IMG/VR virus record: IMGVR_UViG_3300017766_002093
Span: 1 to 48,053 of that record
Reading direction: 5' to 3' (one strand)
DNA length: 48,053 nt
Source of the DNA: a virus
Taxonomy: Duplodnaviria > Caudoviricetes
Shown piece after piece: positions 10,263 through 43,931 of the stretch (the stretch's first letter is position 1; each line of letters starts with the position of its first letter). The notes under the pieces are model-generated. The model made no database searches. It saw only the letters and a program-made list of their open reading frames with translations, and had not been told where the DNA came from. Both the position numbers and the translations under genes were made by a program.

Positions 10263-10285
10263 TTTTACTCCTCCAAATTAAACCC

Positions 10286-10313: not shown

Positions 10314-10327
10314 TGTTTGCTAACAAG

Positions 10328-10509: not shown

Positions 10510-10521
10510 CTTCTTAGCTCT

Positions 10522-10549
10522 CCGGATTGCGCGCCGGGGAATCGCGCGT
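10522..10549. repeat. 28-bp hairpin direct repeat, copy 2
   Basis: CCGGATTGCGCGCCGGGGAATCGCGCGT. Confidence 0.9.
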
Positions 10550-10580
10550 ATCAGCCAACAAAACACTTAAAAATCAGCAC

Positions 10581-10766
10581 TTATTTTCTAAGGTCCCTTA
10601 CGTCCGCACAAATATCACCACGATACGTTCGTATCATCAAACCGCCAAGCGCCCTGCACTCGAGGTCTTGTTCCCTTTTTTTGTCGTTCACATTGGTAAT
10701 TAGATACGCGAGTAATGCAGCGGTTATGAGACCTACAACCAGAATAAGTTTTTGATCGCTATTCAT
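10581..10766 (-). CDS. Small membrane-anchored protein
   Basis: GGAGGG RBS; N-terminal TM helix; two Cys (CRALGG..C). Confidence 0.75.
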   Translation of the reverse strand: MNSDQKLILVVGLITAALLAYLITNVNDKKREQDLECRALGGLMIRTYRGDICADVRDLRK

Positions 10767-10781
10767 TTTCTAAACCCTCCA

Positions 10782-11684: not shown

Positions 11685-11685
11685 G

Positions 11686-12354: not shown

Positions 12355-12423
12355 CTCACCCTCCTTTGTAAAATTGTGCCCGTTAGGTTCACCCAACCAA
12401 CGTATATGCTCGACATCCTCATC

Positions 12424-17424: not shown

Positions 17425-17663
17425 TGGGTACTATTACACTGACTAAAACCAGCGAGTGTGCGGCAGGGGATCATTGGAACATCACGGTTACCGGCGATGC
17501 GAATAGAGAGATCCCCGGCCTGTACGCTCCGGACCTGTTAGCTCCTATAACGGAGACTGACGAGATGATATTCCTACGGGTCGCCCTTCGCCTGGCTAAA
17601 ATCGGGCGCACACAAAACCAGCTACGCACGGCGCTCAACAATGGGCTAACCATCACGATATGA
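17424..17663 (+). CDS. Hypothetical virion-cluster protein
   Basis: TAATG overlap. Confidence 0.7.
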   Translation: MGTITLTKTSECAAGDHWNITVTGDANREIPGLYAPDLLAPITETDEMIFLRVALRLAKIGRTQNQLRTALNNGLTITI

Positions 17664-18811
17664 CTCAGCTCGTACTACCCGGTCATCTACAGCGTACGCC
17701 AATGTGGAACCGTCGAGACGCCAATACCCTGGGCTCTACGGTGCTAAACGCAACGGGCGAAACGCTCTGTATGATCGGTTACGTCACACTAGAAAACCCT
17801 CTAAGCGGAAGCAAAACTCTATCCGCCGCTGGTGGAGGTAAAATTGTGTGGCGCTCGGCTAGCGTTACATTCGCCAACGGGAGCTCCACGTTCGACGTAG
17901 GTATTCAGGATGTATCTACGGCTGCCGCACCGGGTAGAGGTGACGGAACCTTTGACGTTAAGGCGTCGTTTACCGGGGGTGGTGGTGGTATAACGGCCAA
18001 CGCCGCCAACACCAGTACGATGACGAGCGGCACAAAAACGATAGCACAAGGGGACCTTGTTGCCCTAACGTTTGCGATGACCGTGCGGGCTGGCACGGAT
18101 GTGGTTACAGTCTCTCTATCAACAATAGCCCCGAGCGGACCACCTGATCCAACAATACCATTCTGTTGTGATAATACTGGGGGGAGCTATGCCAGGAACG
18201 CTGGAGGTGCGGTTCCCAACGCGTATATCGTTTTCGATGATGGTACTGTGGGGTGGATATACGGCTGCGCGTACGTGAATGCTCTCGGCACCGTAGCGTT
18301 CAATTCTACTACAGGCACAGCAGACGAGTATGGCAATATTGTGTATCCCCGCGCGCCTACGTATGCGATGGGGTTGTCGGCGGTGTTTTCTGCGGTAGCG
18401 TCGCCTGCCTCCGCCGCGTCGATGGAATTAATACTCTACTCCGACCCCCTCGGAACACCGGTTGCGGAACGAGTGGAGACTATCGAATCGGAGAGTATAG
18501 GTAGCGTGGCAGGTGAACTATTGTGTATGTTCACGACGCCGTTTTTAATGAGGGCGTATACGAGCTATGCGTTAACAGTTAGACCCACGACAAACACGAA
18601 CTGGACGCTACGCTATCACGATAACCACACTACGGCGGAAGCCGCTAAAACCGGAGCCCCTAACGCGAATTGCTACGCGGTTAGACGTCTGAATAATAGC
18701 GGAGCATTCTCAGATTATAACGGAGGAACTGCGAAAACCCGAGCGATGACAATGTGGTTGCATACCATGTATGTACAGCAGAATTACAACCAAGCCGGGT
18801 GGTCGATGTGA
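17660..18811 (+). CDS. Putative virion appendage/receptor-binding protein, paralog A
   Basis: T/G/A-rich, beta-rich; aligns end to end with 18808..19956. Confidence 0.7.
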   Translation: MTQLVLPGHLQRTPMWNRRDANTLGSTVLNATGETLCMIGYVTLENPLSGSKTLSAAGGGKIVWRSASVTFANGSSTFDVGIQDVSTAAAPGRGDGTFDVKASFTGGGGGITANAANTSTMTSGTKTIAQGDLVALTFAMTVRAGTDVVTVSLSTIAPSGPPDPTIPFCCDNTGGSYARNAGGAVPNAYIVFDDGTVGWIYGCAYVNALGTVAFNSTTGTADEYGNIVYPRAPTYAMGLSAVFSAVASPASAASMELILYSDPLGTPVAERVETIESESIGSVAGELLCMFTTPFLMRAYTSYALTVRPTTNTNWTLRYHDNHTTAEAAKTGAPNANCYAVRRLNNSGAFSDYNGGTAKTRAMTMWLHTMYVQQNYNQAGWSM

Positions 18812-19956
18812 CTCAGTTGGTGTTGTCAGGAACGCAAGAACGACTCCCAAGTCTACACCCGATAGACCCCTCAGCGGTCGCCGCTTCGGTGATAACGGTG
18901 AACGCGGCTGGTGAGACGCTGTGGTTCTGCGGCTATATAACCCTAGAAAACCCTCTGAGCGGGAGCAAAACTCTATCCGCCGCTGGTGGAGGTAAAATTG
19001 TGTGGTACGCCTCTACCGTTACCTTCGCCAACGGGAGCTCAACGTTCAAGGTCGGTATCCAGGATCTATTATTCGGTTCTGGTAGCGTAGCGCAGGGCGA
19101 TGGGACATTTGACGTTGAGGCGTCGTTTACCGGAGGTGGTGGAGGCATAACAAATAACGCCACTAACGAGAGCGCGATGACAAGCGGCACCAAAACCATA
19201 GCGCAGGGGGATCTCGTTGCTATTACATTTACCATGACGGCACGGAGTGGCGCGGATACGGTGAGCGTTTTAGCACAGAGCCCCGGTGTGTATACCGCGA
19301 ACATGAACTACCCTGTGAGTTCCAATAACACCGTGGGCGCCACGGCGGCAACCGCAATACGACCTAACGCATACATTGTTTTTGATGATGGTACTGTGGG
19401 GTGGATATACGGCACCGCGTACATCTCCGGGGCGATGGCCTCTATCACGTATAACTCCGGAACCGCTACGGCCGACGAATACGGCAATTTAATAATACCG
19501 AAGGACATATTCCATGCGGCAGGTATCGGGGGTTTGATAGCCAACACTACCGCCGGGGCGAATTTCGAGGCGATACTGTACTCAGACCCTCTCGGAACAC
19601 CGGTTGCCGAGAGAACGACGACAGTGACTCAGGCAACTACAGCGGCTCAAACGGGAGGGATAATCCTGTTTAGCTCTCCGTTCAGGATGAAGGCAGGGAC
19701 CCCCTACGCGATAGCGATCCGGCCAACAACGACCACTAGCATTGTACAGTATTATCACGACGGGCATACTACGGCAGCAGCCGCCAAGGTGGGACCACCT
19801 AACGCGAATTGCTATGCCGTCAGGCGTTTGGATAATTCGGGCGCGTTCTCCGACTATAACGGAGGCACCGCGAAAACCAGGCTTATGATATTAAGTGCGA
19901 TAGGAATGCACATACCACAGAATCGAAACCAAGCAGGCTACCAATTGAGGCTCTAA
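18808..19956 (+). CDS. Putative virion appendage/receptor-binding protein, paralog B
   Basis: GTG start at 18808 (MTQLVLSG, compare MTQLVLPG in A); GTGA overlap. Confidence 0.7.
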   Translation: MTQLVLSGTQERLPSLHPIDPSAVAASVITVNAAGETLWFCGYITLENPLSGSKTLSAAGGGKIVWYASTVTFANGSSTFKVGIQDLLFGSGSVAQGDGTFDVEASFTGGGGGITNNATNESAMTSGTKTIAQGDLVAITFTMTARSGADTVSVLAQSPGVYTANMNYPVSSNNTVGATAATAIRPNAYIVFDDGTVGWIYGTAYISGAMASITYNSGTATADEYGNLIIPKDIFHAAGIGGLIANTTAGANFEAILYSDPLGTPVAERTTTVTQATTAAQTGGIILFSSPFRMKAGTPYAIAIRPTTTTSIVQYYHDGHTTAAAAKVGPPNANCYAVRRLDNSGAFSDYNGGTAKTRLMILSAIGMHIPQNRNQAGYQLRL

Positions 19957-28115: not shown

Positions 28116-30797
28116 ATGGCCGTCACGGACTATCAGTTAACGTTTAATCGTGGAGTAGTCAGTCAAAAGGCCAGAGCACGGGCGGACGTAGCTCGGATAG
28201 CCATGTCGGCGGAGGAGCAGATGAACTGGCTACCGCAGACACTAGGGCCTATGCAGTTCAGACCCGGTACAGAATATATAGGATCCACATATACCACTAC
28301 CGGCGCGATTAAACACCTCCCATTTATATTTTCGATTAACGATACCGCGCTCATAGAGGCTACGGACGAATTCGTGCGTGTTAGGGTCGACGAGGTTTTG
28401 ATAACCCGGCCTAATGTATCCACCACCGTAACCAACGGAGACTTCGATACCGATATAGCAAGTTGGACCGATGCCGACGAGGGCGCGGATAGTGTTTCGG
28501 AATGGGTAACCGGTGGGTATATGAGGCTCACGGGTAGCGGGGTAAACGCCGCCCGTCGTAAGCAGACGCTAACCGTAGCCGTTATAGATCAGGATGAAGA
28601 ACACGCGCTGCGTGTTATCGTTGCTTACGGTAACGTCACCCTACGGGTGGGTAGCGCGACCACAGCAGATGACTACATAACCGAGACGGTGCTAGGAGTA
28701 GGGGAACACTCGCTGGCGTTTACACCAACAGGCGCTTCGGTATACGTTAGTGTGAGTAACGCCTCGACGTATCCGGCGTACCTCACTAGCGTAAATGTTG
28801 AGTCCGGTGGGGTAATGTCGTTTACGACAGGGCTGCTACCTGCTGAAACATTAGACGAGATTAGATACGCGCAATCCGGTGATATTCTTTTTATAGCGCG
28901 TGGAACGACGCGAAAACCTGTAAAGATCGAACGCCGGGGTACTAGATCCTGGTCGTTGGTGGATTACTTAGCTGATAAAGGGCCTTTCCTAGCGGCCAAC
29001 ACCGGCTCGGTAACGTTGGCGGTGGACGCAGTAGCCGCTACGGCAGCAGACCCTACCGTCACGGTTACCGCGTCGCGAGAGTATTTTAAGTCCACTCAGG
29101 TTGGGGGGCTATTGAGGATCACCTCTACAGGGCAAACAGTATCTAGTTCCCTGGGCGCTCTCGATGCGACAACAAATTCGATACGTGTTACTGGTATCGG
29201 GGACTCCCGACGCTTTACAATAGCCATAAGCGGTACGTGGGTCGGGACCATCGACCTGGAGCAATCGATAGGGGAGGAGGGCTCTTGGACTACTGTAGAC
29301 TCTTGGACGTTAAACACCACCGAGACCTACAACGACACCCTAGATAACCAAATAATTTACTACCGGCTGAAAATGTCGGCGTATACCTCGGGCTCTGCAA
29401 CCGCGTCTCTTAGCATACCCACGGGGTCTATAACCGGCATCGGTCGAATAATAACGTATACGAGCCCCACGTTAGTTGACGTTTTCGTTTTACAGGATTT
29501 CGGCAGTACGACAGCTACCTCAGATTGGGCGGAGGGAGCCTGGAGCAGCCGGCGGGGATTTCCTTCCGCTGTGTGCTTTTTCGAAGCTCGCCTATATTGG
29601 GCTGGTAAGGATCATATATGGGGCTCTACGGTAGACGACTATTATAACTACGACATCGACTACGAGGGGGACGCTGGACCTATCGACCGGTCTATAGGTT
29701 CGGGCCCTGTCGACACTATTAACTGGTTGGTGCCTCTTAACAGTATACTAATGGGGGCTCAGTGCGCAGAGCACATAGGTCGGTCGACGGGATTTGAGGA
29801 GCCAATAACACCGAGCAACTTCAACCTCCGAGAGGGGTCGACCTTCGGCTCCGCCCCGGTTGAGTCTGCTAAGGTTGATTCGTCTTGCATCTTCGTCGAT
29901 AGAACAGGCACTAGGGTTATGCAGTCCGTGATTACGGAGGCCAATCGCGTCGAGACTATAGAGTTGTCTGTTCTTTGTCCTGAGCTCTGCCGCCCTGGTA
30001 TAAAACGCATAGCCGTGCAGCGACGACCAGAGACTAGGGTACACCTGCTACGGTGCGACGGCACTGTAGTGATACTTACGTTTGATAAAGTCGAGGAATT
30101 AAAGTGCTTTACGACATGGGAAACCGCTGGGCTCGTCGAGGATATATGTGTTATACCCACAAATGCCGTCGAGGATTTGGTATATTATACGGTAGCGCGA
30201 GAGGTTGACGGCGCCGTTGTACGATACCTGGAACGCTGGGCGGAATTGACCGAGGCGCAAGGTGGCGTGATAAATAAAATCGCGGATTCATTCCTGATAC
30301 ATAATGGTGTTTCAACAACCATAGTCTCGGGGCTAGACTATTTGGAAGGGTGTACGGTCGTCGCGTGGGGTAATAGCAAAGATTTAGGCTCTTATACGGT
30401 GGCCAGTGGCTCTATAACGCTATCCGAGGCTACGACGTACGCTGTGGTAGGATTATCGTACTACGCGAACTATGTGAGCAATAAGTTGGGGTTCAACCTC
30501 TACGGTGCTACAGGTATAAAAAAGGATAACCGGGTTACACATTTGGGGTTAGTCCTAGACGATACGGACGCGGACGGGTTGGAGTTCGGGACGGAATCCT
30601 CCTATTTGGACTCGTTGCCTCCTATCGAAGAGGCAGCCGCCGTGACAACTAACTATTTATGGGATAGCTATGACCAAGAACCAGTGCCTGTTAACGGAAC
30701 TTTTAATTTCGACACGCGGCTTTATCTTAAGGCGACGGCGCCGAAGCCGTGCACAGTAGTGGGGTTGACGATAGATATGGTCACCGCAGCTAAATGA
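28116..30797 (+). CDS. Tail tubular protein B / nozzle (T7 gp12-like)
   Basis: FNRGVVS..RAD..GPMQFRPGT, YAQSGD, GAWS..GFPSAVCFFEARL. Confidence 0.9.
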   Translation: MAVTDYQLTFNRGVVSQKARARADVARIAMSAEEQMNWLPQTLGPMQFRPGTEYIGSTYTTTGAIKHLPFIFSINDTALIEATDEFVRVRVDEVLITRPNVSTTVTNGDFDTDIASWTDADEGADSVSEWVTGGYMRLTGSGVNAARRKQTLTVAVIDQDEEHALRVIVAYGNVTLRVGSATTADDYITETVLGVGEHSLAFTPTGASVYVSVSNASTYPAYLTSVNVESGGVMSFTTGLLPAETLDEIRYAQSGDILFIARGTTRKPVKIERRGTRSWSLVDYLADKGPFLAANTGSVTLAVDAVAATAADPTVTVTASREYFKSTQVGGLLRITSTGQTVSSSLGALDATTNSIRVTGIGDSRRFTIAISGTWVGTIDLEQSIGEEGSWTTVDSWTLNTTETYNDTLDNQIIYYRLKMSAYTSGSATASLSIPTGSITGIGRIITYTSPTLVDVFVLQDFGSTTATSDWAEGAWSSRRGFPSAVCFFEARLYWAGKDHIWGSTVDDYYNYDIDYEGDAGPIDRSIGSGPVDTINWLVPLNSILMGAQCAEHIGRSTGFEEPITPSNFNLREGSTFGSAPVESAKVDSSCIFVDRTGTRVMQSVITEANRVETIELSVLCPELCRPGIKRIAVQRRPETRVHLLRCDGTVVILTFDKVEELKCFTTWETAGLVEDICVIPTNAVEDLVYYTVAREVDGAVVRYLERWAELTEAQGGVINKIADSFLIHNGVSTTIVSGLDYLEGCTVVAWGNSKDLGSYTVASGSITLSEATTYAVVGLSYYANYVSNKLGFNLYGATGIKKDNRVTHLGLVLDDTDADGLEFGTESSYLDSLPPIEEAAAVTTNYLWDSYDQEPVPVNGTFNFDTRLYLKATAPKPCTVVGLTIDMVTAAK

Positions 30798-31135
30798 TAC
30801 AGTTCCGAGCAGCCTCTCGTGAGGATCTACTACGATACTACGACGGTACTATTCCCGCGACCATGCGCGCCTGGTTGGCAGAGGACGAGAGCGGGGTTTT
30901 AGGTATCGCAGGGGTGTACTACCAACACGGGCAAAAAGTTGTGTTCAGCGATATGACTACCCGCGCCGAGGTTTTCAGGGTTTCTATAATGAAAATGGCG
31001 CGGCACGTATTATCGCAAATAAGTGGGACGTTGTATGCTGTAGCCGACCCGAAGAGGGGAACCTCCCGCCGATTCCTTGAACGGCTAGGGTTTGTTAAGG
31101 TTGACTACGCGGACCACATATTCAAAAGGGAGTAA
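30794..31135 (+). CDS. GNAT-fold protein (T7 gp13-like position)
   Basis: C-terminal SRRFLERLGF motif; position after the nozzle. Confidence 0.7.
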   Translation: MIQFRAASREDLLRYYDGTIPATMRAWLAEDESGVLGIAGVYYQHGQKVVFSDMTTRAEVFRVSIMKMARHVLSQISGTLYAVADPKRGTSRRFLERLGFVKVDYADHIFKRE

Positions 31136-31141
31136 TCAGAT

Positions 31142-31642
31142 ATGCAAGCCATCCCCGCAGTTTTAGGTGTTATGAGCTTCGCCGGCTCCGTCTTGGGGGG
31201 CTTGGGTTCTATGCAGGAGGGTCGCGCACAGAACGCCATGGCCAAGTACGAAGCCCGGCAAATGGAGGCGCAAGCGAAGGCGGCAGAGGCCGCAGGGCAA
31301 CGCGCTTCTGCCGAGAAGCTACGCGAGTCACGGCTGCTACAATCTCGCGCGCTAGCGATAGCTGGGGCGTCCGGTGCGGGTGTTAGCGACCCGAACGTGC
31401 TCCAAATCGTCTCAGGCATCGCGGGGGAGGGTACTCGGAATGCCCTAACAGAATCCTTTAACGCCAGGTCTCGGGCCGAGGGGCTGCGCGCGCAAGCAGG
31501 CGCCACACGCCTGACGGGCAAGAACGCCCAGAAAGCAGGGTTTATTAACGCGGGTGCTACGATCTTAGAAGGTACGGCGCGCGCAGGTTCCTTCGGCCTC
31601 GATCCGAAGGGTACATCCAATGCTCGTTGGTTCGGATTCTAA
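31142..31642 (+). CDS. Internal virion/ejection protein (gp14-like)
   Basis: G/A-rich hydrophobic N-terminus, A/Q-rich helices, AGASGAGV. Confidence 0.8.
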   Translation: MQAIPAVLGVMSFAGSVLGGLGSMQEGRAQNAMAKYEARQMEAQAKAAEAAGQRASAEKLRESRLLQSRALAIAGASGAGVSDPNVLQIVSGIAGEGTRNALTESFNARSRAEGLRAQAGATRLTGKNAQKAGFINAGATILEGTARAGSFGLDPKGTSNARWFGF

Positions 31643-31644
31643 CT

Positions 31645-33321
31645 ATGCCAAGACTACCTACGATAGACGATATAAACCGAGTAGCGCCTCAACCTGACTT
31701 CACCGTAGCGCAATTCCGGGGGGATCTTGCTCCGCAAGCGTTAAAGCACCTGGGTCGCACGGTAGAACGCACGGCGGATATGGTGCGGGAGTTTCACGAC
31801 GAGATCGAGGAAAAACGAGCTATGGAGGCCGTCGTAGAACTGCGCCGCAGGCAAAATTTAATGACGGTGGGAGAGTCGGGATACGCGCGTTTGCGTAATG
31901 GTGCCGCGACACATGAGGGCGTCTTTAAGAAGTACCAGGATCTACATAAGAGCGTAACAGAGGATTTGAGTAAAAATCTCAGCCCCAGAGCACGCGCCAT
32001 GTTCCAACAAAAAGCCACATCTGAGCGCGAGAATTTTGAGGCCGGGTTCCTTACGCACGCTATGCGCGAGGACATATCTCACACCGACGAGATTTTCAAA
32101 TCGCAAACGGCTATGCACGCCGAGACTATGAGCGCCATCTACGATAACCCGGAGCTCGTGTTGCGAGAACGCGCGGCACAGCAAGCTAACATAGCTCGCT
32201 ATTTAGAAAAAACGGGGGTGCGCGATCCTGCCGTGGTCGAGCACATCACCCAACAGTCGTTAGCCGCCGGGCACGAATCGATCATTAGGGCGTATATCGC
32301 GACTAACAACACCGCAGCCGCTAAGCAGTATTTGGACGGTGTTAAGCATGAGATCCCGACCACGACGGAAAAAGCCCTCAACACTTTGTTAAAACCCGCT
32401 ATCGCCGACCAAGCTGGGCGTGGCGTGGCTGAGAAAATGTTTGAGATGTATCGTTCTGGTAAAGGTGCCCTGGCGATTCAGCAGGAAAAACTCAAGCTCA
32501 CGGAGGGTATGAGTCCTGAAACGCTACGAGTCGCGGACAATATTTATGGTGATCTCGTGACAGCGGTGGATAAGGATACTAAAAAAGCGAAGGGGGCTCT
32601 GCTCCTGCGCGCCATGGGTGGAGAAACTATAACCGAATCTCAAATCGCCGAGGTGGCGCAGACAAACCCGGCACTGGCCGCGACGCTGCGAAAACAGCTA
32701 GACGCGCTCAAGAAAGGCTCCGTAGACGGCAAACCGGCGAGCCTCAGTTCTATGTCGATCTACGCGCGGACGATGGATAAGATCCGAAACGGTGAGATAG
32801 AATCCGCTGAAGAGATTGGGGAACTAGCGGGGGTGCTAAAAAATGCAGATGTCAAATCCCTAATCTCCGCTTTTAATTCCCGCGAGAACGCGGCCAACAA
32901 GTTTAAAATACCTAAAACTTTGATAGACGCCGGCAGACCAAAAGGTGCGAATACTACCGCGAATAAAGAAGCCTACAAGGGTTTTATAGAACAAAAGCTG
33001 CAGGACTGGAAAGACCAGAACCCTGGACGTGTACCAACGCCGGAGGAGCAACGGGCGATAATACAATCCGCTGGCGAGGAACACGTAGAGGTTAACAAAT
33101 ATTGGTTCAATAGTGAGACTCCCGCGTATAAGCTGGGTGAGGGCGCAAAAACATACCCACGACGGTACGAGCAGTTATTGCCTGACGCAACCTCGGAAGA
33201 AAGAGCGGACGCATATAACTTTGTATCCGGGTATAATGCTTCAAAACGCCGAGGGGATGTCAGCTATTCCGAAGCGGAGTTACTAGAGATTTGGCGAAAT
33301 AAGGATACTATAATCAAATGA
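31645..33321 (+). CDS. Internal virion/ejection protein (gp15-like)
   Basis: MPRLPT start; helical; lies between gp14-like and the giant protein. Confidence 0.72.
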   Translation: MPRLPTIDDINRVAPQPDFTVAQFRGDLAPQALKHLGRTVERTADMVREFHDEIEEKRAMEAVVELRRRQNLMTVGESGYARLRNGAATHEGVFKKYQDLHKSVTEDLSKNLSPRARAMFQQKATSERENFEAGFLTHAMREDISHTDEIFKSQTAMHAETMSAIYDNPELVLRERAAQQANIARYLEKTGVRDPAVVEHITQQSLAAGHESIIRAYIATNNTAAAKQYLDGVKHEIPTTTEKALNTLLKPAIADQAGRGVAEKMFEMYRSGKGALAIQQEKLKLTEGMSPETLRVADNIYGDLVTAVDKDTKKAKGALLLRAMGGETITESQIAEVAQTNPALAATLRKQLDALKKGSVDGKPASLSSMSIYARTMDKIRNGEIESAEEIGELAGVLKNADVKSLISAFNSRENAANKFKIPKTLIDAGRPKGANTTANKEAYKGFIEQKLQDWKDQNPGRVPTPEEQRAIIQSAGEEHVEVNKYWFNSETPAYKLGEGAKTYPRRYEQLLPDATSEERADAYNFVSGYNASKRRGDVSYSEAELLEIWRNKDTIIK

Positions 33322-36300
33322 CAGAAGAAATCTTCGATCTGATCCGTAAACAAAAGCCGTCGTTATTGACTCCAGAAGTTCCGACGGCTTTTGCACCTTC
33401 TCCGATACCAAAACCCCGCGTCAAACCGCTTGGGGGAAACGCCTTCGCACAGGACGAATTAGCTCTGGCGCGCGACCGCTCAGCCTACAGTGATCCTAAA
33501 CAAGCCGCGCGTAACCGTGGTTTATCGGCTTCGCTGGGTGTTAACCCGATCTTACTACCGCCGGATGCTGAGGCGCAGGCGTTTGTTAAGAAGCGCAGCG
33601 AGATGGACAAACTCATCGAGAACAATCCCGGACTGGCGCGTTTCCTCTTGAAACAAAAAAATAACGCCGAGGTAGTAGGTCGGGATTACGAGCCTATGGA
33701 GCGTACCGAGATTTTACTCAAGAGGCTATTCACAGACCCTATGGTTTCCGCGTTAAAGGGCGTCGTATCTTTTAACGAGGCTCTTGTGGGTTTACTCGAT
33801 ACCCGTTTAGGTGGGCGAGTAGGTAAGGGCCTGGAGGACGCCGGCTTTAAGTTTAAGGCCACCCAAAAAATTCTCGACCAGGCGTACTCGGAGCCGACGC
33901 AGCGCTTAATAAAAGAGATTGGGGAAACAGAGGGTTTTTTAGAGACGGTAGAGGCTCTCGTTACCCGTCCATCCGCAGCCGCTAACATGCTGCTGCAATC
34001 TGGCGGGCCTATGTTGGGCGCGGGTGGTATAGCTCAAGGACTGCTTAAGGTAGCGCCTGCGTTATCACCGTTGGTTGCGGGGGCTTTAGGAGAGTCGTTA
34101 GTAATAACGGGAGGTATTTCTGAGAAGGTGCGACAGGAATCTCCCGACGGACTAACAGACGCGCGACAGGCGTTACTGGCGCAAGCTGGCGGTGCAGCGG
34201 GTTTCGCGTTCAATCTGTTAGGGGGTAAGATAGCCGCTAAGCTGGGCGTCACGGACGTGGATACCTGGATGGCGAGCGGCGCGGCTAAAAAAGTGATGGA
34301 TGAGGCCAAAGTTCCTCCGAGTCTAGTCGCGAAAATTTTAGGTGGTGCCGCCGTAGAAGGCGCGGTGCAGGAGATGCCGCAGTCCGCCGCCGAGGTTATC
34401 GCTGAGAATATCGCGCTTGGAAAACCCTGGAATCGTGGAGTCGAAGAGGCCATGGCCACGGGTCTCGTGCTCGGTAGTGTTATGGGTGCGGGAGTGCAGG
34501 CGCTACCCACTCGGAATACGACTGTCGACAAAGCCCTGGATACGTCCGCACTGAAAAAATTTAAGGAGCTAAGCCAAGCAGCTCACGCGCAGGAAACGCG
34601 CAAGATTCTCGGGGACCTGGCTAAAGAAACCGCCTCGAACCCCGTCCGGGAGAGGTCGCCGGAGGCGTTCGCGGAGTTCATCGACGAGGTTACGGAGGAT
34701 TCAGTTGTTAAGGAACTATACGTCGATGCTAAGGCGCTGGACGAAACACTGAGCCAATCCGAGCTTGAGGCCATGCCGGAAGTGGCTAAGGACATTTCGG
34801 TTGCGTTACAAGCCGGGGGTGGCGACGTTCGCATACCTATGTCACTCTACGCTACCCATATATCGGGTAAACCCATCGAGGCCGCGCTAATCGATAATGT
34901 TAGGGCAACCCCAGATGGTATGACGTTCTCCGAATCAGAGAATTTTCTGCAGAGCCTACAGACGAACTTAGAGGATGAGGCTCGGCGGTTGGTTATCGAG
35001 AACGATCCGGTGCTGTCGGAAGCAGATTTTAAACAACAGAACCCGGAGGGTTCATACCCAGACTATCTAAAAGCTCACGCGAATAAGGCGGAGGTGTTCG
35101 CGAACGACCTCCGAACAGTACACGATACCCTTGTCAAAAGCATAGAGAGCACGGGGCGTTTTGACCGAACGGTCGCTGAGCTATATGCAACCCCGCTGCG
35201 AGAATTCTTCGCGAATAACGCGGCCAAGCTGGGTATGATGCCTAGCGAGCTCTACGAGTTGTTGCCCGTAAATTTCGCATCCACACACGTCGAGGGCTAC
35301 AAGCAAGACGAGGATCCTTCCAAGCTAAACACGAACCGCCCAGGCGGTGATACGGCGGCCTTTTTCGCTAAGATGACGCTAGGGCTGGATGGTGTGCCTG
35401 GCGCCGCGTACGAGCCTGTGATACCTCTGCGAGCGGAGCACCGCGAGTTCCTACGGGAATATGAGAAGCACCGAGGGAACTTCGACAACCATATCCGAGC
35501 TAGCATCCCTGGTTTTGGAGAGGTGCAGGTACTAACGGGTAGGGCTATCGTCAGCACATATACCAACGGCGCGGCGGTGCTGGATGTCGGAGCGAGTGAG
35601 GGCTCCTGGGCCAAAACAATAACGGCGCTATCTAACAGTAGTATAGAGACCGACGCGCTGGAGCCGCTCTCTACGATGAAGAACTTTTTTGTCGATAAAT
35701 CTACAGTACCAGGCGCTCGGCAGTTGATGATGCCGTGGGGCGGTAACGGATGGCCGGAGGAGGGCACCGGGGTGGTTATCCCTCCCTTCCGATTGGACAG
35801 ACAGTATGACGTAGTACACGAGTCGATGACGTTCCAATTCATCAACAACGACCGTACGGCACACGTCGCGCTGGTGAAACAAGCGCTGAAGCCCGACGGT
35901 GTTTTCCTCACTGAGGAGAAATTTTCGTCAGACGGAACGGCGGAGTACAAAGCGCGCGAAGCGCAGAAAGACCAATATAAAGCTAGGTACTTTACGGCCG
36001 CGGCAATGACGCAGAAGGCTGAGCAGGTAGTCGTAGGAATGCACGGCAATATGGTACCCCAGAACGAGTACGAGAAAACACTGGCGGCTAATTTCAAATA
36101 CGTCGTGCAATATTGGAGTTCTACGAACTTCGGAGGTTACGCCGCTTCGGACGATCTTGAGGCACTAACGCGTCTGGTCGATAACATTGGCAATACTACG
36201 ACGGAGTTCTCCGCCGACGCGACCCTTGAGGACTTTGCCGCTGATCGCATTCGTGGGATCTTTTCAAAAAAGAACTGGGGCATCGTGACTGCGGAGAACC

Positions 36301-39300
36301 CGAACGCGACGCAACAGAGCGAGGCGCAGAACCAAGCTGCTAACGCGGCGCTACGTGCGGAATTGGACGCTAAGGGTCTTAAGTACGTAGAAGTCAAGGG
36401 TATGTACCCTGGGGACCTGAAAGAGTCGAACTCGTTTTTGGTGTTTGGTATCGACTCCGATGCGGCGGTCGACATCGGGCAGAGATACGGACAGGAGGCG
36501 GTACTAACGCCTCGGGGTTTGGAGTTCTCCGACGGACGACTATTGGCTCCTGTACTGCCGTCTGAGCTAGTCGAGGACGTAGCCAATGCGCCACGAGGTT
36601 ATACTAAGATACCCGGCGATGCCGCTTTTACAGTAACGGACTTCCGTGAGCCTCCGCGCCCAGCCGCGCCGAGTCAACCCGGCAGTATTAGTCTCGTGGG
36701 CGTACACTATTCGAGAGAGTCGCGCGCGATATTGGAAGGCGATCGCTACGGAACCGGTAGGCCGGGTGCGGAGCGCGAACGGGTTTTGTTTGGTTCGGAT
36801 AATCAAAAGCTAAAGACTCGGATAGATTTCTACGTCGACATTGGCAACGGGGTAAAACCCGAGGAGGGCGTCGGCGACACCAGGCACGACGTTGTGCTGC
36901 ACAATCTGTATGATGCTAGTAAGAACGAGCGCGGCTTCAAGGCGGACAGCAATCGCTTTGACGGCATGAACCGTTTTGAGAACCAAGTAATCGAAGCGGG
37001 TTACGATGGGTACTACGTGGAACAAGGCGGCCAGGGTCGGGTGGTGCTGCTGGGTGACGCGGCTAAGAGCGTTCGAGTACCGAGTCGGAACGAGATCGAT
37101 AGCCTAGCCGCTCGCGCTAAGCGCCAGGCGGAGGGTTATAACCAATCAGAGCTATACTCGGCACTCGCTCGCAATATCGAGGGTCTGCGAAAACTCGCCA
37201 ACAAGAAAGGCTTAATTAAAATCGAGCAGGCTAAAACCTGGATCAATTCCCGAGTCGCAGAAGGCAAGTTCAAGAAAGAAGAGGTAGAGGCGGTAGGGCT
37301 CTTGGACTATCTGAACGGCATACTAGAGGATGCCGCCAGTGGTAAACGGGACAAAATAGACCCCTCAGAGCGCGAATCCGTGTCCGTTGAAGCGGTGTTG
37401 GAATACGTTAGGGAGAACGGCGTACAGGTAGAGATCATCTCGTCCGATGAAGGACAGGCAACGAGGTATTACTTCTACGACCGCAACGGTGATCGGCAGG
37501 AGTACGACGATTACAGTAGGGCAGAACGCGAACGGGATTACGCTTACGACCAAGAGATAAGAGACCTGTACGACGAGCTCATTGACGTTAACTACGTAGA
37601 CAGGCCCTACCACCACGGTGGGAGGCTCCTGTATCTGGTTCTAGATAACGATCGTGCTGTTACTTACGAGTTGGGCGAGGAAGAAGAGGACGGGAGTAGA
37701 GTATGGTACGCCGAGGATGAGTATGGTAGTAACTTAGTACGCGACGGGCGAGTTCCCGATGCGATACCTGAAGATGATACCGACGAGTTAATCGAAACGT
37801 TGCAGGACTTTGTTAACGGGCACATAGATGACATCCAACAAGAGGCTGATATACAAACAACTGATGTTGAAGAGGAGGAGGCTTCCGGCGATACAGAGTT
37901 CGGGCGATACACCTTAAAGGGTTCTCGGGACGAATACGTAGAGTTAGCGATAACCCTACCGACCAGTAGGTTCGGTTCGTTTGAGTACAGTACCCATGAT
38001 TTTAGCAATCCCGACGCGAACAACAACCGCATAGCTTTTGCGAGATATACTATCCGAACTTTTAGGGTCTCCAACGACGAAGAACGTGACAGGTTACGCG
38101 CGGAGCTTGACTCCGTTCCCCTCGATGACACAAAGGTGCCGTTGCAAGAGGCCGTGCATAAAGTCCTAGATAATCTAGCGCAGGAACGTTTTAGTCGAGA
38201 TGCGAACGAGCACGAGATGGAAACGGTTTTAGGATTGCTCAGTTGGAAAGTCCAAGGGGAGAAGTCCGACGCCTTCGGGTACTCCTCCGAGACTTGGCGG
38301 ATTATCGAGAACGCGCCCGAGTATCCAGAACTGTTGGCGCTCACTAAAAAACACCTCGAAACCATTGAAAAACGAACGGAATTAAAGTCGGCGCTGAGAT
38401 CCCTCATAGATAATGGCGCCTATAAAAGAGTCCTAGTGATCGAGGAGCTCCAGAGCGATTGGGCGCAACAAGGCCGCGACATCGGCTTTGCATACGAGAT
38501 GGGTAAAGAGGATGACGCCCGTATGAAAGCGCTGGAAGCTGAACTGACCCAGCTAGAAAAAGCCAAGCATAAGGAGTTGTTAGAGACAAACCCAGACCAG
38601 CAGGTGATAGCTGAATTAGCTCGCAAGATGGCGGTGATTCCTCAAAAGATGAGCTACCTTCGCAAGGGTCTCACAGAGGAAGAGATAGAGGCGGACACCT
38701 TGCTTGAAACCCCAGGTACTAACGCGCGGAATAATCCTCGCTTGAAAGACCTGCACCGCAGGGGGGTCGTCCAATCAGCACTAAACAAGCTACGCACCGA
38801 CATACCTAGAGCGCCGTTTACTGCGAACACTAAATCCTGGCTGGCGTTAGTTACCAAGGCGGTACTACGTCACGCAGTGGAAAAGGGTGTGGATTCTGTC
38901 GTCTGGAATACCGGCGAACAACAGAATGCTCGCTACAGTCTCAGTCGTTTAGCGTCGTCGATTACCCTAGCTAGGGATGCGAACTACCACTACCGGATAG
39001 CTCAACTACTGGACGCGAACGGTAGTGAGGTTTCCATTCCCTACCCAATCCAAGGGAAATTAACACTCGCAGAGGTGAAGAAGGCCATAGGCGCAGAACT
39101 TACGGATAAAGCCGTCGAGGCTCTGAACGCGGCGGAGGACGCGCTGCCGCTAGGCTCTATGGGCCCCATTCAGCACACTCTCGACTCAGAGGGTTTAGAG
39201 GTGAGTGGCAAAGGCATGAGAGCTTTTTACGATGCGAACGGCATCTTAGAACAGGTCATGCGGGATGTTGCTAAACTTGGCCGATCCGATATAAAGGGAT

Positions 39301-42300
39301 TCGATTTCACCGGCGTGAATGAGGTGGACGCAGAGCGTGAGCTAGCGGTGCAACAGGGTTTCGACGTCACCGAGGGTTTATCCGAGCGGGTCAACGCCGG
39401 AATGCCTCTATTTCAGAGAGCTCGGGCGGGATTCAATCCGGATACACTAACGATCTCCCTGTCGCAGGGAGCCGATTTGTCCTCTGTTATACACGAAGCC
39501 GGGCACTTTTATCTGGAGGCGTTGGCCGCGATGGCGAAGCACCCCAACGCACCACAACAAATCCGGGACGACTTTCGTAAAACGCTGGAGTGGTTCGGTA
39601 TAACGGGTACAGAAGAGGGTATCCCCGGCGGGGACCTGGAGCAGAAGGCTTTTCACGGATCGCCGCATGAGTTCGATATGTTTTCTACGAGCAAAATAGG
39701 TAGCGGAGAAGGGGCGCAGGCGTTCGGGTATGGGCTATATTTTGCGTCGAGTAAAGCCGTAGCCGAGTATTACCGAGATAACGTCAAGGATCTGAAAAGG
39801 GTAAAAGAGATCAACACTGAGTTGAGCTCTTTAGCGGAGGTAATGGCTCGTTACGAAATCCGGTATCGAAAATACTCAAGCCCGGAGGGGTATGCTGCTG
39901 CCGAAAAGTATGACGCCCTAATAGCGGAAAGGGGCGACCTGATAGCGAAAAGGGGTCGGGTTTACGAAGTGGAACTAAAACCGCAAGAGGATGAATATCT
40001 GCTTTGGGATACGCCGATCAGTGAGCAGAGCGAGAAGGTTCGGGCCGCGCTCTTGTCAGCTTACGATGTAGAGGGTATTAAACTAGCAGAGGATCTCGGT
40101 TATACCGGGGCGCAGTTCTATAAAAACTTCGATCCCGAATCGTCCGAGAAAGACATGTCCGCGCGCTTACACGCCCTCGGTATTCGAGGCATTAAATACC
40201 GCGACGGAATGGGCCGGAACAAGGGTGGGGACTCTTACAACTACGTTATCTTCAGCGATAACGATGTAGAGATTCAGTCATACTACCAGGGCGGAGAGCA
40301 AACACCATCCGGAGGAGCGATACCTACTGGCACTACTCCGGAGGAAATCTGGGATCGGATGACCATAAACCAAAAGCGTCAATACCATGAGCAATGGGCG
40401 CAGTCTTTTGAGCGGTATGCGCTAGAGGGCAAAGCTCCTTCCGTGGAGATGCAATCGGTATTCGCTAGATTCCGAGACTGGATGCTGCGGGTATATTCCG
40501 GTGTTAAAGAATTTCTACGGCAGAACCCTTTGGCCGGTAAGCTGAACGATGACATCCGCGCGGTATTTGATAGGTTGTTGACCTCAGAGGATCGTATCAA
40601 AGAGGCGGAACAAATACGATCCTACCAGGCACTATTCTCATCGGCGGAGGAGGCCGGGGTGTCTCCCGCTGTTTTCAGGGATTATTTGGAATTAGGTGAG
40701 CGAGCTACTGAGGAGGCTATTTCGTTGCTGAGCGCTCGTAGCGTGCGCGATTTGAAGTGGCTTAGTAACGCCAAAGGAAAAGCTCTCAAAACGCTGCAGA
40801 ACACCGTACGCGCTGTTCGTAAAAAACTACGCAGAGAGGCTACCGCCGAAGTGCGAAACGAAACGGTGTACGCCGCAATACGATTCTTGAAACAAGGGCA
40901 GCTAGTAGACGACCAGGGTGAGCTAACGAAAGCCGAGAGAACATTTAAACTAAACGAGCGAGAGCTCGTGGAATTAGGAGTAGACCCCTCTAGGTTCAAA
41001 GGGATGACTTCTGCCACGGGGTTGCCACTAGATCAGGCTGCAACACTATTGGGGTACCCGTCTGGGGGAGCCCTCGCGCAAGCGATCGCCGCTGCGGAAC
41101 CAGAGTTCGACAGGATCTCGGCGCTAGTCGATCAGCGAATGCTAGAGCAACACGGCGATCTAACTACGCCGGAGGCTATGGAACGCGCGGTGGAGCTAGC
41201 GATACATAACGATGTTCGGGCTCGTTTCCTAGCGACGGGTTTGAAACTGTTGACGGAAGGCAAGTCCCGCGCTACTGCAGCACAGATCAACAAAGCTGCG
41301 AAACTCGCGGCGGATTCTGTCATCAACGATAAACGAATACGGGACATAAAACCGCACGCCTACACGCAAGCCGAGGGTAAGGCCAGTCGGCAGGCGCTAG
41401 CGCGTTTGCCGAGGGATCCGCAGGGCGCGATCGAGGCGCAACGCGCGGCACTACTTAACAATCGTTTAGCTAAAGCGGCGGCGGACGCAGTTGAGGAGGT
41501 GGAGCAAACAGTTCGATACCTCAGTAAGTTCAGTAATAATGGTACGCGCGACAACATAGACCCAGATCAACTGGAGCAGATCGACGATCTGTTAGAGCTC
41601 ACCGACCTGCGTAAGGGTGTGACTAACCGCGCGTTAGACAAACGGCGATCTCTCGCAGAGTGGGTAGAGGAGCAGGAACTCGCAGGCATAAACCCTGCGA
41701 TAGACTCAGCACTGCTAGAGGATATAAAGCGCAAGCATTTCAAGGACATGACGCTTAGTGAGCTAAGGAGTCTGTCAGACACTATTAAACAAATCGACCA
41801 TATCGGGCGGCTCAAGAAAAAATTATTATCGGCTCGGGAAAAGGCGGAGTTCAACGCGCTAATGGCCCTCGCTCGCGAATCAATAGAGAAAAACGCGAAC
41901 CGGGTTGTAGTTGAGCAGGAGTCTCGTACGGACGTAGTGGGCACCCTGGGCGCTTGGGGTCGATTCATGCTAGCCGCACACCGGAAATTCAGTTCAATTA
42001 TACGGGAGATGGACGGTGGCAAAGACGGCGGAATCATGTGGCGCATACTCTCGCGGGGGATGAATGAGGCCGGTGACAAGGAAGTTGAAATGCGGCAACA
42101 GGCTGCAGAGGCTTTAGCTAAACTGTTCGATGCGCTACCGGCGCAGGATCACGTACCTGGTAATCTTTACGCCAAGAAGAAAATAGTACCCGGTACGAAT
42201 ATCAGCATGACGCACGAACAGCGCATTATGTTCGCACTGAACTACGGTAACGAAGGCAACCGGCAGCGGTTGCTAGATGGGGGACTATCCGGCCATAAAG

Positions 42301-43931
42301 CGTTATCTATCGTAGATGCGGAGGCGATCCTAGACACACTCACCAAAGCGGATTGGGACTTCGTTCAAGGGGTGTTGGATTTCGTAAACGGCTATTGGGA
42401 GCAGATCGTAGCCCTGGAGGAGAATGTCACTGGGCTGAGTCCTAAAAAAGTCGAGGCGGTACCGATAGTAACCAAATTCGGAACCTACCGAGGGGGTTAT
42501 TTCCCGGCGACTTATGACACTCAACTGTCTACTCGCAGCGAATCGTTAGAAGCTGTTACGGATCTACGGTCCGGGATGCTAGGCGCGTTTGGCCGATCGT
42601 CGGCTAAGAATGGCTACGCCAAAGCGCGCGCTGACTCTGTGGTAGGTCGGCCTCTCTTGCTGAGTTTCAACGCCATAGCGCAGCACGTTAGCTCGGTCAC
42701 CCATCGACTCGCGTGGGAGCCATGGTTGATCGACGCTAATCGAATACTAAGAGCGCTCGATAGTAGTATCCGCGAATTCTACGGCGCGGACATACTCCGC
42801 GAGATGAGGGACACGGTGGTTGATATCGCGCAGGGAGACCTGCCAGCTAAGAGCCCGATAGAACGCGCGTTGAATCACCTGCGTACGGGCGCGACGATCG
42901 TGGGCATGGGTTGGCGCGTAACGACCGCTCTGTTGCAGCCGTCTGGTTTAGCCCAGTCTTGGGTGCGTATCGGCGGCGGGTGGATATCTAAAGGGTTGGC
43001 TCAATTCATGAAAAACCCGAACACTGCGTCGCGATATGTTAACGAGAGATCCAGCCTAATGCGGCGGCGCGACGCTACCATGAACCGGGAGGTCAACGAC
43101 GTACTCAATACTGTGCGTGCCGGTGAGAAAATCTCCATTGTAAAAGCGTCGTTCTTTACGATGATTACTAAAATGCAGCGCGGCGTGGACATACCTACCT
43201 GGCTCGGCGCGTATGAGAAAGCCCTCTACGAGGCAAAGTATGAGCAGGCGGCGGACGAAGCAGCGCGTAAGGAGATCGAGGAGACCGCTGCGGCGATGGC
43301 CGACCAGGCGGTACTCGACTCGCAATCCGGTGGTCAGATCAAAGATCTGGCCAAAGTACAACGCGGACACCCGGCGCTAAAACTATTTACTAATTTCTAT
43401 TCATACTTTAGCGCAACATATAATCTAAATGTTGAAGCTGTACGACGCACAGATTTCAAATCGCCAGCTCAAGTTGGCCTGCTTGCCGGGGATCTATTGC
43501 TGCTGAATTTTGTGCCGGTTGTGTTCAGTTTGGCGCTTAAAAACATGCTGAAAGGGGAGTGCGATTGGGATGATACGGCTTGCCTGGCGGAGAACTTAGG
43601 GCGTGAGCAGGCCAGCTACCTATTCGGGCAGATGGTGCTCCTACGTGAGGTAGGCGCAACTGTGGAGGCAATGACAGGTGGTGCGCAGTATGGTTACTCA
43701 GGCCCCGCCGGTTTACGTTTCTTATCAGACACTTATAAGCTGGGCGTACAACTGAACCAAGGGGAGGCGGATTTGGGACTGTTCAAAGCTGCAAACTCAG
43801 TAGGCGGAGCCATACTCCACTATCCCGCCGGGCAGATTAATGCTACAATCGACGGCATAATAGCAATCGAAAATGGCGACGTAGAAGGTGTGCGCATACT
43901 GCCCGCCTTAATCGCAGGAGCTCCTAAATGA
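33318..43931 (+). CDS. Giant internal virion/ejection protein; large polyvalent protein (CmoA-like MTase, DUF3293-like, two ART-like, zincin)
   Basis: 3537 aa in the gp16 position; G/A-rich hydrophobic N-terminus; LDVGASEG, WGIVTAENP, VHYS..GYDGY, IEELQSDW, HEAGH, FHGSPHEF..GEGAQAFGYGLYFA. Confidence 0.88.
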   Translation: MTEEIFDLIRKQKPSLLTPEVPTAFAPSPIPKPRVKPLGGNAFAQDELALARDRSAYSDPKQAARNRGLSASLGVNPILLPPDAEAQAFVKKRSEMDKLIENNPGLARFLLKQKNNAEVVGRDYEPMERTEILLKRLFTDPMVSALKGVVSFNEALVGLLDTRLGGRVGKGLEDAGFKFKATQKILDQAYSEPTQRLIKEIGETEGFLETVEALVTRPSAAANMLLQSGGPMLGAGGIAQGLLKVAPALSPLVAGALGESLVITGGISEKVRQESPDGLTDARQALLAQAGGAAGFAFNLLGGKIAAKLGVTDVDTWMASGAAKKVMDEAKVPPSLVAKILGGAAVEGAVQEMPQSAAEVIAENIALGKPWNRGVEEAMATGLVLGSVMGAGVQALPTRNTTVDKALDTSALKKFKELSQAAHAQETRKILGDLAKETASNPVRERSPEAFAEFIDEVTEDSVVKELYVDAKALDETLSQSELEAMPEVAKDISVALQAGGGDVRIPMSLYATHISGKPIEAALIDNVRATPDGMTFSESENFLQSLQTNLEDEARRLVIENDPVLSEADFKQQNPEGSYPDYLKAHANKAEVFANDLRTVHDTLVKSIESTGRFDRTVAELYATPLREFFANNAAKLGMMPSELYELLPVNFASTHVEGYKQDEDPSKLNTNRPGGDTAAFFAKMTLGLDGVPGAAYEPVIPLRAEHREFLREYEKHRGNFDNHIRASIPGFGEVQVLTGRAIVSTYTNGAAVLDVGASEGSWAKTITALSNSSIETDALEPLSTMKNFFVDKSTVPGARQLMMPWGGNGWPEEGTGVVIPPFRLDRQYDVVHESMTFQFINNDRTAHVALVKQALKPDGVFLTEEKFSSDGTAEYKAREAQKDQYKARYFTAAAMTQKAEQVVVGMHGNMVPQNEYEKTLAANFKYVVQYWSSTNFGGYAASDDLEALTRLVDNIGNTTTEFSADATLEDFAADRIRGIFSKKNWGIVTAENPNATQQSEAQNQAANAALRAELDAKGLKYVEVKGMYPGDLKESNSFLVFGIDSDAAVDIGQRYGQEAVLTPRGLEFSDGRLLAPVLPSELVEDVANAPRGYTKIPGDAAFTVTDFREPPRPAAPSQPGSISLVGVHYSRESRAILEGDRYGTGRPGAERERVLFGSDNQKLKTRIDFYVDIGNGVKPEEGVGDTRHDVVLHNLYDASKNERGFKADSNRFDGMNRFENQVIEAGYDGYYVEQGGQGRVVLLGDAAKSVRVPSRNEIDSLAARAKRQAEGYNQSELYSALARNIEGLRKLANKKGLIKIEQAKTWINSRVAEGKFKKEEVEAVGLLDYLNGILEDAASGKRDKIDPSERESVSVEAVLEYVRENGVQVEIISSDEGQATRYYFYDRNGDRQEYDDYSRAERERDYAYDQEIRDLYDELIDVNYVDRPYHHGGRLLYLVLDNDRAVTYELGEEEEDGSRVWYAEDEYGSNLVRDGRVPDAIPEDDTDELIETLQDFVNGHIDDIQQEADIQTTDVEEEEASGDTEFGRYTLKGSRDEYVELAITLPTSRFGSFEYSTHDFSNPDANNNRIAFARYTIRTFRVSNDEERDRLRAELDSVPLDDTKVPLQEAVHKVLDNLAQERFSRDANEHEMETVLGLLSWKVQGEKSDAFGYSSETWRIIENAPEYPELLALTKKHLETIEKRTELKSALRSLIDNGAYKRVLVIEELQSDWAQQGRDIGFAYEMGKEDDARMKALEAELTQLEKAKHKELLETNPDQQVIAELARKMAVIPQKMSYLRKGLTEEEIEADTLLETPGTNARNNPRLKDLHRRGVVQSALNKLRTDIPRAPFTANTKSWLALVTKAVLRHAVEKGVDSVVWNTGEQQNARYSLSRLASSITLARDANYHYRIAQLLDANGSEVSIPYPIQGKLTLAEVKKAIGAELTDKAVEALNAAEDALPLGSMGPIQHTLDSEGLEVSGKGMRAFYDANGILEQVMRDVAKLGRSDIKGFDFTGVNEVDAERELAVQQGFDVTEGLSERVNAGMPLFQRARAGFNPDTLTISLSQGADLSSVIHEAGHFYLEALAAMAKHPNAPQQIRDDFRKTLEWFGITGTEEGIPGGDLEQKAFHGSPHEFDMFSTSKIGSGEGAQAFGYGLYFASSKAVAEYYRDNVKDLKRVKEINTELSSLAEVMARYEIRYRKYSSPEGYAAAEKYDALIAERGDLIAKRGRVYEVELKPQEDEYLLWDTPISEQSEKVRAALLSAYDVEGIKLAEDLGYTGAQFYKNFDPESSEKDMSARLHALGIRGIKYRDGMGRNKGGDSYNYVIFSDNDVEIQSYYQGGEQTPSGGAIPTGTTPEEIWDRMTINQKRQYHEQWAQSFERYALEGKAPSVEMQSVFARFRDWMLRVYSGVKEFLRQNPLAGKLNDDIRAVFDRLLTSEDRIKEAEQIRSYQALFSSAEEAGVSPAVFRDYLELGERATEEAISLLSARSVRDLKWLSNAKGKALKTLQNTVRAVRKKLRREATAEVRNETVYAAIRFLKQGQLVDDQGELTKAERTFKLNERELVELGVDPSRFKGMTSATGLPLDQAATLLGYPSGGALAQAIAAAEPEFDRISALVDQRMLEQHGDLTTPEAMERAVELAIHNDVRARFLATGLKLLTEGKSRATAAQINKAAKLAADSVINDKRIRDIKPHAYTQAEGKASRQALARLPRDPQGAIEAQRAALLNNRLAKAAADAVEEVEQTVRYLSKFSNNGTRDNIDPDQLEQIDDLLELTDLRKGVTNRALDKRRSLAEWVEEQELAGINPAIDSALLEDIKRKHFKDMTLSELRSLSDTIKQIDHIGRLKKKLLSAREKAEFNALMALARESIEKNANRVVVEQESRTDVVGTLGAWGRFMLAAHRKFSSIIREMDGGKDGGIMWRILSRGMNEAGDKEVEMRQQAAEALAKLFDALPAQDHVPGNLYAKKKIVPGTNISMTHEQRIMFALNYGNEGNRQRLLDGGLSGHKALSIVDAEAILDTLTKADWDFVQGVLDFVNGYWEQIVALEENVTGLSPKKVEAVPIVTKFGTYRGGYFPATYDTQLSTRSESLEAVTDLRSGMLGAFGRSSAKNGYAKARADSVVGRPLLLSFNAIAQHVSSVTHRLAWEPWLIDANRILRALDSSIREFYGADILREMRDTVVDIAQGDLPAKSPIERALNHLRTGATIVGMGWRVTTALLQPSGLAQSWVRIGGGWISKGLAQFMKNPNTASRYVNERSSLMRRRDATMNREVNDVLNTVRAGEKISIVKASFFTMITKMQRGVDIPTWLGAYEKALYEAKYEQAADEAARKEIEETAAAMADQAVLDSQSGGQIKDLAKVQRGHPALKLFTNFYSYFSATYNLNVEAVRRTDFKSPAQVGLLAGDLLLLNFVPVVFSLALKNMLKGECDWDDTACLAENLGREQASYLFGQMVLLREVGATVEAMTGGAQYGYSGPAGLRFLSDTYKLGVQLNQGEADLGLFKAANSVGGAILHYPAGQINATIDGIIAIENGDVEGVRILPALIAGAPK

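Follow-up and report, generated by a model that had tools for sequence, protein, structure and literature searches.

The locus raises the question of what a domain resembling CmoA, the enzyme that makes carboxy-SAM, would be doing inside a giant protein encoded among the virion genes of a podophage. The window analysed here is the complete genome of that phage (G000; 48,053 bases, direct terminal repeats, 100% complete), in which a head-tail connector and tail tube genes are followed by three internal-virion-type genes (113, 166 and 564 aa; 30794..33321, plus strand, PHROG matches) and then by an ORF of 3537 aa (33318..43931, plus strand). Two of these three genes match 'internal virion protein' families (phrog_308 and phrog_418) and one matches phrog_1044, an order that agrees with the large ejection-protein position which an earlier note, made from the sequence only, had assigned to the ORF. 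The answer we prefer, tentatively and at somewhat less than an even chance, is that this protein delivers a SAM-wasting anti-defence cassette composed of a CmoA-derived domain and a neighboring predicted SAM lyase.

Like polyvalent proteins, the 3537-aa product is encoded in a virion gene block and combines several enzyme domains of unrelated kinds in a single chain. The polyvalent phage proteins described by Iyer et al. 2017 (PMC5512222) are likewise virion-associated chains with numerous modules of different origin, but their marker domains LPD22 (21.1 bits against a cut-off of 28.6) and ART-PolyVal (24.8-26.9 bits against 31.2) are shared with our protein only as weak matches, the ART-PolyVal-like segment of 26.9 bits lying at 39609..39920 (plus strand). 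A match to phrog_9880 spans aa 2342-3523. Comparison with 17 same-scaffold relatives of 1900-2650 aa delimited an accessory insert of about 1375 aa (aa ~661-2035; 35298..39422, plus strand), flanked by conserved N- and C-terminal parts of the scaffold; in one relative (L262) the scaffold is continuous across the insert site (609 to 619). The CmoA-like domain is the first module of this insert and was present in none of the 17 relatives. An HExxH segment which, from the motif alone, we take to be zincin-like (39423..39596, plus strand) is part of the scaffold and not of the insert. Further along, the insert holds three unnamed modules that recur among the best 150 members of the family described below (36732..37058 in 29 of them, 37152..37433 in 37 and a 'QSDW' module at 38457..39110 in 36, all plus strand); Pfam gave no convincing match for any of the three (36732-39110).

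Six motifs had been recognized in the earlier note as collinear with those of CmoA, and all of them lie in frame and in that order within the ORF (33318-43931, plus strand): FDNHIRASIPGF at aa 722 (35481), LDVGASEG at aa 755 (35580), SMTFQF at aa 836 (35823), LKPDGVFLTEEKF at aa 857 (35886), MTQK at aa 897 (36006) and YWSSTNFGG at aa 932 (36111). Homologs, profile and structure model place a CmoA-fold class I SAM-binding domain at aa 682-968 (35361..36221, plus strand); the kinship proposed for the segment 35420..36200 is therefore borne out by profile and fold, although the homologs make the domain slightly wider. When the PDB was searched with the single sequence, three CmoA chains came on top but weakly (E 0.026-0.096), while a profile of 16 sequences retrieved CmoA chains at E values of 4e-9 to 1e-8, the next protein being at 1.5e-3. 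The domain also matched PHROG 4752 'tRNA methyltransferase' (E 2.8e-13), and its score with a profile built from 11 canonical CmoAs was 60.6 bits, compared with at most 11.8 for 1000 shuffled sequences; a single-sequence search of loci with the CmoA-like domain found nothing. Compared with CmoA (E. coli 4GEK/4IWN; H. influenzae YecO 1IM8; TIGR00740), the domain shares the fold, the order of the motifs and part of the SAM-contact residues, and it keeps the Q-F, E-K, K198 and N-F features of the E. coli enzyme. It differs in its 17% identity to the latter and in its TIGR00740 score, which at 26 bits is far under the curated family cut-off of 193.3, as well as in having 40-aa N-terminal and C-terminal extensions, in lacking Arg199 and Asn132, and in being embedded in a virion-block protein of a genome without cmoB.

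The structure model of the domain (pLDDT 95.4) shows a class I Rossmann fold with the CmoA lid. The earlier note had proposed a comparison with CmoA structures, and its outcome depends on the method: VIA puts CmoA first (4gek, Z 22.0, rmsd 2.6 over 219 aligned residues), in a tie with MM_2633 (21.6) and followed by BelI at 20.8, whereas in Foldseek the top place goes to the carboxyl O-methyltransferase CysG and CmoA comes seventh. CysG and BelI (9FCY, 9FCE), described in PMC11408123 as carboxyl O-methyltransferases with a His-His-Asp metal motif, thus belong to the same structural clade as our domain; however, no CysG-like His-His metal pair is conserved among 149 family domains, and the sequence profile favors CmoA by five orders of magnitude.

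Residues were compared in an alignment of E. coli CmoA with ten stand-alone phage CmoAs (together the 11 canonical sequences), and family counts were taken over 149 domains, that is, the best 150 minus one with a long insertion. The SAM contacts named for CmoA in PMC3663124 include Asp62, Gly64, Ser66 and Asp89 (PMC7496830 was a further source of residue information), and these correspond to D756, G758, S760 and E782; the contact set compared also comprised Y39, N90, D117 and N132, and at these other columns F733 stands for Y39 and S836 for N132, and D117 has no clear equivalent, all three columns being variable among phage CmoAs as well. In the account of PMC3663124, Arg199 is the carboxylate ligand. 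Its column is occupied by Ala901 (Lys900-Ala901, 36015..36020, plus strand, aligned with Lys198-Arg199 of E. coli), just as the earlier note had read the residue after QK. Lys198 is kept in 11/11 canonical CmoAs and Arg199 in 4/11; in the family, the K900 column is Lys in 149/149 domains and the next residue is most often Ala (39), Arg (25), Gln (22), Lys (15) or Asp (14). Arg therefore stands at the Arg199 column in 25 of the 149 domains, and in none of 27 stand-alone phage CmoAs encoded beside Arg-type C5 transferases, every one of which has Asp or Glu there.

A pairwise check placed Glu at this column in the CmoA of phage S-B43 (SpCmoA), which PMC12783734 reports as highly active (kcat 2.33 /s versus 0.23 for the E. 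coli enzyme). We considered, and rejected, the notion that loss of Arg199 amounts to loss of activity, given this Glu and the absence of Arg from all 27 stand-alone phage CmoAs; since an active enzyme has Glu at the same column, Ala901 is no sign of a dead domain. Judged from these alignments, phage CmoA can do without Arg199, which is therefore not diagnostic of activity, and the Arg-to-Ala remark of the earlier note says little about whether our domain works. Ten residues are invariant in 149/149 domains (S729, P731, Q840, F841, R846, K868, K888, K900, N937 and F938) and have counterparts that most canonical CmoAs retain, K888 being paired with Lys185 by local spacing, as a one-residue gap parts them in the alignments. 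Five others, E761, E835, M837, E881 and K884, are new to the family (147-149 of 149) and lacking in canonical CmoAs. The CmoA pocket is described as hydrophobic in PMC10491745; a changed chemistry is thus possible, because the family has gained invariant charged residues and has a long stem in the tree. The added residues are the main argument that the chemistry of this family may have changed.

The 16-sequence profile collected 428 clusters (50% identity) at E <=1e-30 and 654 at 1e-10. Among the best 150 members, 124 reach 1000 aa or more, with a median of 2440, while 11 fall short of 500 aa; an ORF of at least 1000 aa carries the domain in 65 of 81 phage loci. The only cultured carrier in the phage collection is Maribacter phage Panino, with an 1829-aa protein (PANI_CDS0069) at the end of the structural block, and the three loci contributed by GTDB all come from metagenome bins. 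In a quick tree with 48 rows the family formed one clade with support of 100 and a long stem (2.76 changes per column). Its nearest neighbors there are His-type phage CmoAs like that of S-B43, but long branches meet at the family root and leave the sister group unsure. The S-B43 CmoA, from the cmoA-cmoX-cmoY cassette presented in PMC12783734, resembles the CmoA-like domain in being phage-borne, in having His at position 31 and in lacking Arg199; nevertheless, CmoAs of that type are stand-alone proteins of ~220-250 aa with a transferase alongside, whereas the members of the CmoA-like family form a clade of their own on a long stem, are for the most part embedded and usually have no transferase.

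Stand-alone members of the family sit among small hypothetical genes, outside structural blocks. Two such copies occur on one phage-like contig from an Arcicella bin (L162:7340-8221 and 9929-10849), surrounded by small hypothetical genes. In one family protein (P0002, aa ~130-310) a match to PF03059, presumably nicotianamine synthase-like and another SAM-using domain, lies directly ahead of the CmoA-like domain. Four others (P0004, P0005, P0007 and P0008) belong to another class of mosaic proteins, whose modules are parted by short repeated motifs resembling processing sites.

If the domain makes carboxy-SAM, an acceptor enzyme might be expected nearby; the earlier note had seen none, and our searches of the whole genome agree with it, as homologs of C5-methyltransferase, CmoX, CmoY and CmoB were all not found. 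A tblastn search of the window and 81 loci detected no CmoX, CmoY or CmoB, and in the control a partner showed up at 5 of 10 canonical loci. An HMM search of 165 loci with the flanks retrieved for them, among which L163 is a copy of this genome, likewise detected none. Ten further viral fragments gave no match in the partner search, and the matches in one bacterial bin (G099) were uninformative. A C5 transferase was absent from 48 of 50 records with the domain (the longer 50 of the 81) and from 13 of the 15 near-complete ones. The window thus lacks the arrangement of the cmoA-cmoX(-cmoY) cassette, a stand-alone cmoA beside an Arg-type C5 transferase: its domain is embedded and its genome has no such transferase.

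The two records that do encode a C5 methyltransferase, G043 and G044, are instructive. Their enzymes have Arg where ordinary ones have Asn, which is the CmoX signature according to PMC12783734, and GGTPC instead of SPPC; a CmoY homolog (49% identity) lies directly behind the transferase of G044. Related transferases were gathered from 52 loci, with Arg in 49, one ambiguous and two cut, and a stand-alone cmoA was present within the fetched locus in 45. Three of the remaining seven end within 200 bases, and the other four comprise G043, G044 and two fragments whose transferases are nearly identical and whose virion genes fall outside the contig. Six of the genomes are at least 90% complete: G043 and G044 encode the embedded domain but no stand-alone cmoA, and the reverse is true of G065, G072, G074 and G075 (Fisher p 0.067, for genomes that are not independent). 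Because G043 and G044 keep a transferase without a stand-alone cmoA, the embedded domain could supply carboxy-SAM; the pattern hints at such an ability in one lineage, with supply by the host as the alternative.

These transferases are part of a large marine podophage group (L108-L159, e.g. G044:C1:23636-25676) that combines the CmoX Arg with GGTPC, not SPPC, and adjoins cmoA in 45/52 loci and often cmoY. As GGTPC replaces SPPC, the group would be missed by the published SPPC filter.

Ten residues downstream of the CmoA-like domain starts a second one, of the Pfam family DUF3293 (aa 979-1101; 36252..36620, plus strand), for which Pfam, model and motif point to a SAM-lyase fold. With the SAM lyase family PF23780 it gave E 7e-4 and 20 bits, below the Pfam cut-off of 28, and 26 of 37 aligned relatives of the domain matched PF23780 at E <=0.05. 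The model (pLDDT 91.5) has the ferredoxin-like fold of the lyases: in VIA it matched the T3 SAM lyase 7ock (Z 10.4, rmsd 2.9, 117 aligned), then Svi3-3 (Z 5.8), while the SAM-AMP lyase 9gab reached Z 4.2 only, and in Foldseek the top six rows were T3 and Svi3-3 SAM lyases (best E 6e-3). The pattern of conserved or catalytic lyase residues given in PMC7877911 (Gly56, Tyr58, Glu69, Gln104 and Glu105) is matched by G1028, Y1030, E1036, Q1059 and E1060, paired by motif order and not by superposition; in 37 aligned lyase-like modules, Gly and Gln are kept in 37/37 and Glu at the catalytic loop position in 20/37. Sequence and profile searches of the PDB gave no lyase match and a word search found no relative, the likeness being visible only via Pfam and fold. 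Fold and motif together lead us to predict that the domain is a T3-type SAM lyase. It shares with T3 gp0.3 (7OCK, 8BB1), Svi3-3 (6ZM9) and PF23780 the fold (Z 10.4) and the Gly/Tyr/Glu/Gln-Glu pattern, but it is 13-19% identical to the T3 and Svi3-3 lyases and has a shorter loop ahead of the Glu; moreover, the T3 SAMase is expressed early and as a free protein (PMC8406200), whereas the lyase-like domain is part of a 3537-aa structural-block protein.

A lyase-like module was found in 30 of the 150 family proteins, within 150 aa of the CmoA-like domain in 20 of them (on its N side in 11 and its C side in 9), and 120 had no detectable one. A 423-aa fusion (P0027) shows a weak lyase match (E 0.009), and at one locus (L241) a lyase gene scoring 53 bits, over the Pfam cut-off, lies immediately ahead of a stand-alone family gene. 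Adjacency is not special to the lyase, as other modules are as close in 14/15, 12/14 and 19/42 cases, and an HhH-like module is commoner (59/150). We looked for a constant partner in the same chain and rejected the idea, none occurring in more than 59 of the 150 proteins. Enrichment of the pair over background was judged on the 17 same-scaffold proteins, a weak control, and the lyase-like module was in none of them; as most of these have no modules at all, the 0/17 does not amount to a specific enrichment. At the L241 locus (3213-6414), the SAM lyase gene, the stand-alone CmoA-like gene and a DUF7178 gene are close together, and DUF7178 resembles, by eye, the HhH-like module.

In the preferred reading, the CmoA-derived domain would still convert SAM and prephenate to carboxy-SAM, the adjoining domain would cleave SAM, and both would enter the host with the phage DNA in the ejection protein, so that together they would waste host SAM, corrupt it and thereby weaken SAM-dependent defences. 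Carboxy-SAM without an acceptor would be a dead-end product, possibly a competing analogue. Carboxy-SAM synthesis is likely in view of the shared invariant residues and one apparent gene replacement, and delivery with the DNA is likely from the position of the gene; the targets (type I/III restriction, BREX or SAM-AMP signalling) we infer by analogy with the T3 SAMase, which counters SAM-dependent restriction or BREX (10.1101/2023.02.27.530186; PMC8406200; PMC12255297). The SAM-drain idea gains support from the predicted T3 SAM-lyase fold of the neighbor domain. If about four copies were injected, each with 2-10 turnovers per second, they would consume between some hundreds and a few thousand SAM molecules each minute, little compared with the roughly 1e5 in an E. 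coli-sized cell, and by this estimate a bulk drain by few injected copies is doubtful in large cells. A local effect, or one in small cells, is more likely; the cassette could act around the entering DNA, by inhibition, in small cells, or later upon expression of the gene. Extended to the family, the proposal that virion-carried carboxy-SAM synthases, often lyase-fused, turn host SAM into an analogue that poisons SAM-dependent immunity from the first seconds, ahead of gene expression, strikes us as unlikely though worth stating; DUF3293 would in that case be a large unrecognised branch of SAM lyases.

An enzyme of changed chemistry would account for part of the data. The domain could be a small-molecule methyltransferase delivered at infection, its substrate being for example a metabolite with a carboxylate group or a nucleotide that signals alarm, with the lyase as independent passenger; the long stem, the new invariant charged residues E761, E835, E881 and K884, the equal nearness in fold of the carboxyl O-methyltransferases CysG and BelI, and the lack of an acceptor enzyme in most genomes all speak for it. 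Against this stand the retained CmoA signature (Q-F, E-K, K198, N-F) and the missing CysG-like conserved His-His pair; besides, the fusion of a SAM lyase to an enzyme that needs SAM would be self-defeating, and the pattern in G043 and G044 would become a coincidence, so we regard such a methyltransferase as an unlikely, yet serious, contender. Carboxy-SAM might instead not be waste but the donor for a phage or host transferase acting on DNA, RNA or protein, as suggested by G043 and G044, with their intact Arg-type C5 transferases, the CmoY homolog of G044 and the embedded domain as sole CmoA relative; the many uncharacterised modules of P0004-type and other proteins could also include an acceptor. 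The absence of C5 transferase, CmoY and CmoB from this genome, 48/50 records and 165 locus flanks, and of any module co-occurring in more than 59/150 proteins, makes a donor role improbable.

The intact SAM site, the closed lid fold and the pairing with a lyase would equally suit a SAM sponge, or a second SAM-cleaving chemistry without carboxy-SAM, but a few copies of a sponge would be negligible and many of the invariant residues are not among the SAM contacts; we give this very little weight. Hardly any more probable, and if anything less so, is an insert that is not delivered at all, acting late, when the structural gene is abundantly expressed, or being clipped before packaging. The rate argument on injected copies is in its favor, late expression would suit the supply of CmoX in G043 and G044, and the HExxH segment after the insert could, by its motif, process the chain, as Iyer et al. 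propose for such proteins (PMC5512222); yet the insert is internal to the scaffold with conserved parts on both sides, and stand-alone members sit outside structural blocks, among small genes.

Among the open-access matches listed, no paper described virion proteins in which a CmoA-like or lyase domain is embedded, and the main text of Iyer et al. 2017 (PMC5512222) contains none of the terms CmoA, lyase, SAMase or carboxy, though its supplementary lists may include these domains under other names. The parts are already known; the new elements are the finding that Arg199 does not diagnose activity, the apparent gene replacement, the pair of stand-alone genes and the boundaries of the insert. 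Arg199 would no longer serve as a marker for declaring phage CmoA relatives dead. Whether CmoA-driven SAM depletion touches host defence is left open in PMC12783734, and a family that is mostly acceptor-free and repeatedly lyase-paired makes this question testable with domains of 290 aa and 125 aa. The known anti-SAM counter-defence, the T3 SAMase, is an early expressed lyase; if the cassette reading is right, anti-restriction and anti-BREX strategies would gain a second chemistry and a route that is packaged and operates before transcription, and DUF3293 would acquire a function.

Two other regions of the window deserve mention. Three consecutive genes on the minus strand (9855-12396) encode pentapeptide-repeat proteins of 135, 300 and 236 aa, a class of proteins known as DNA mimics. 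Ahead of the terminase, two tandem paralogous genes (17660-19956, plus strand) encode proteins of 383 and 400 aa that match neither Pfam nor PHROG families.
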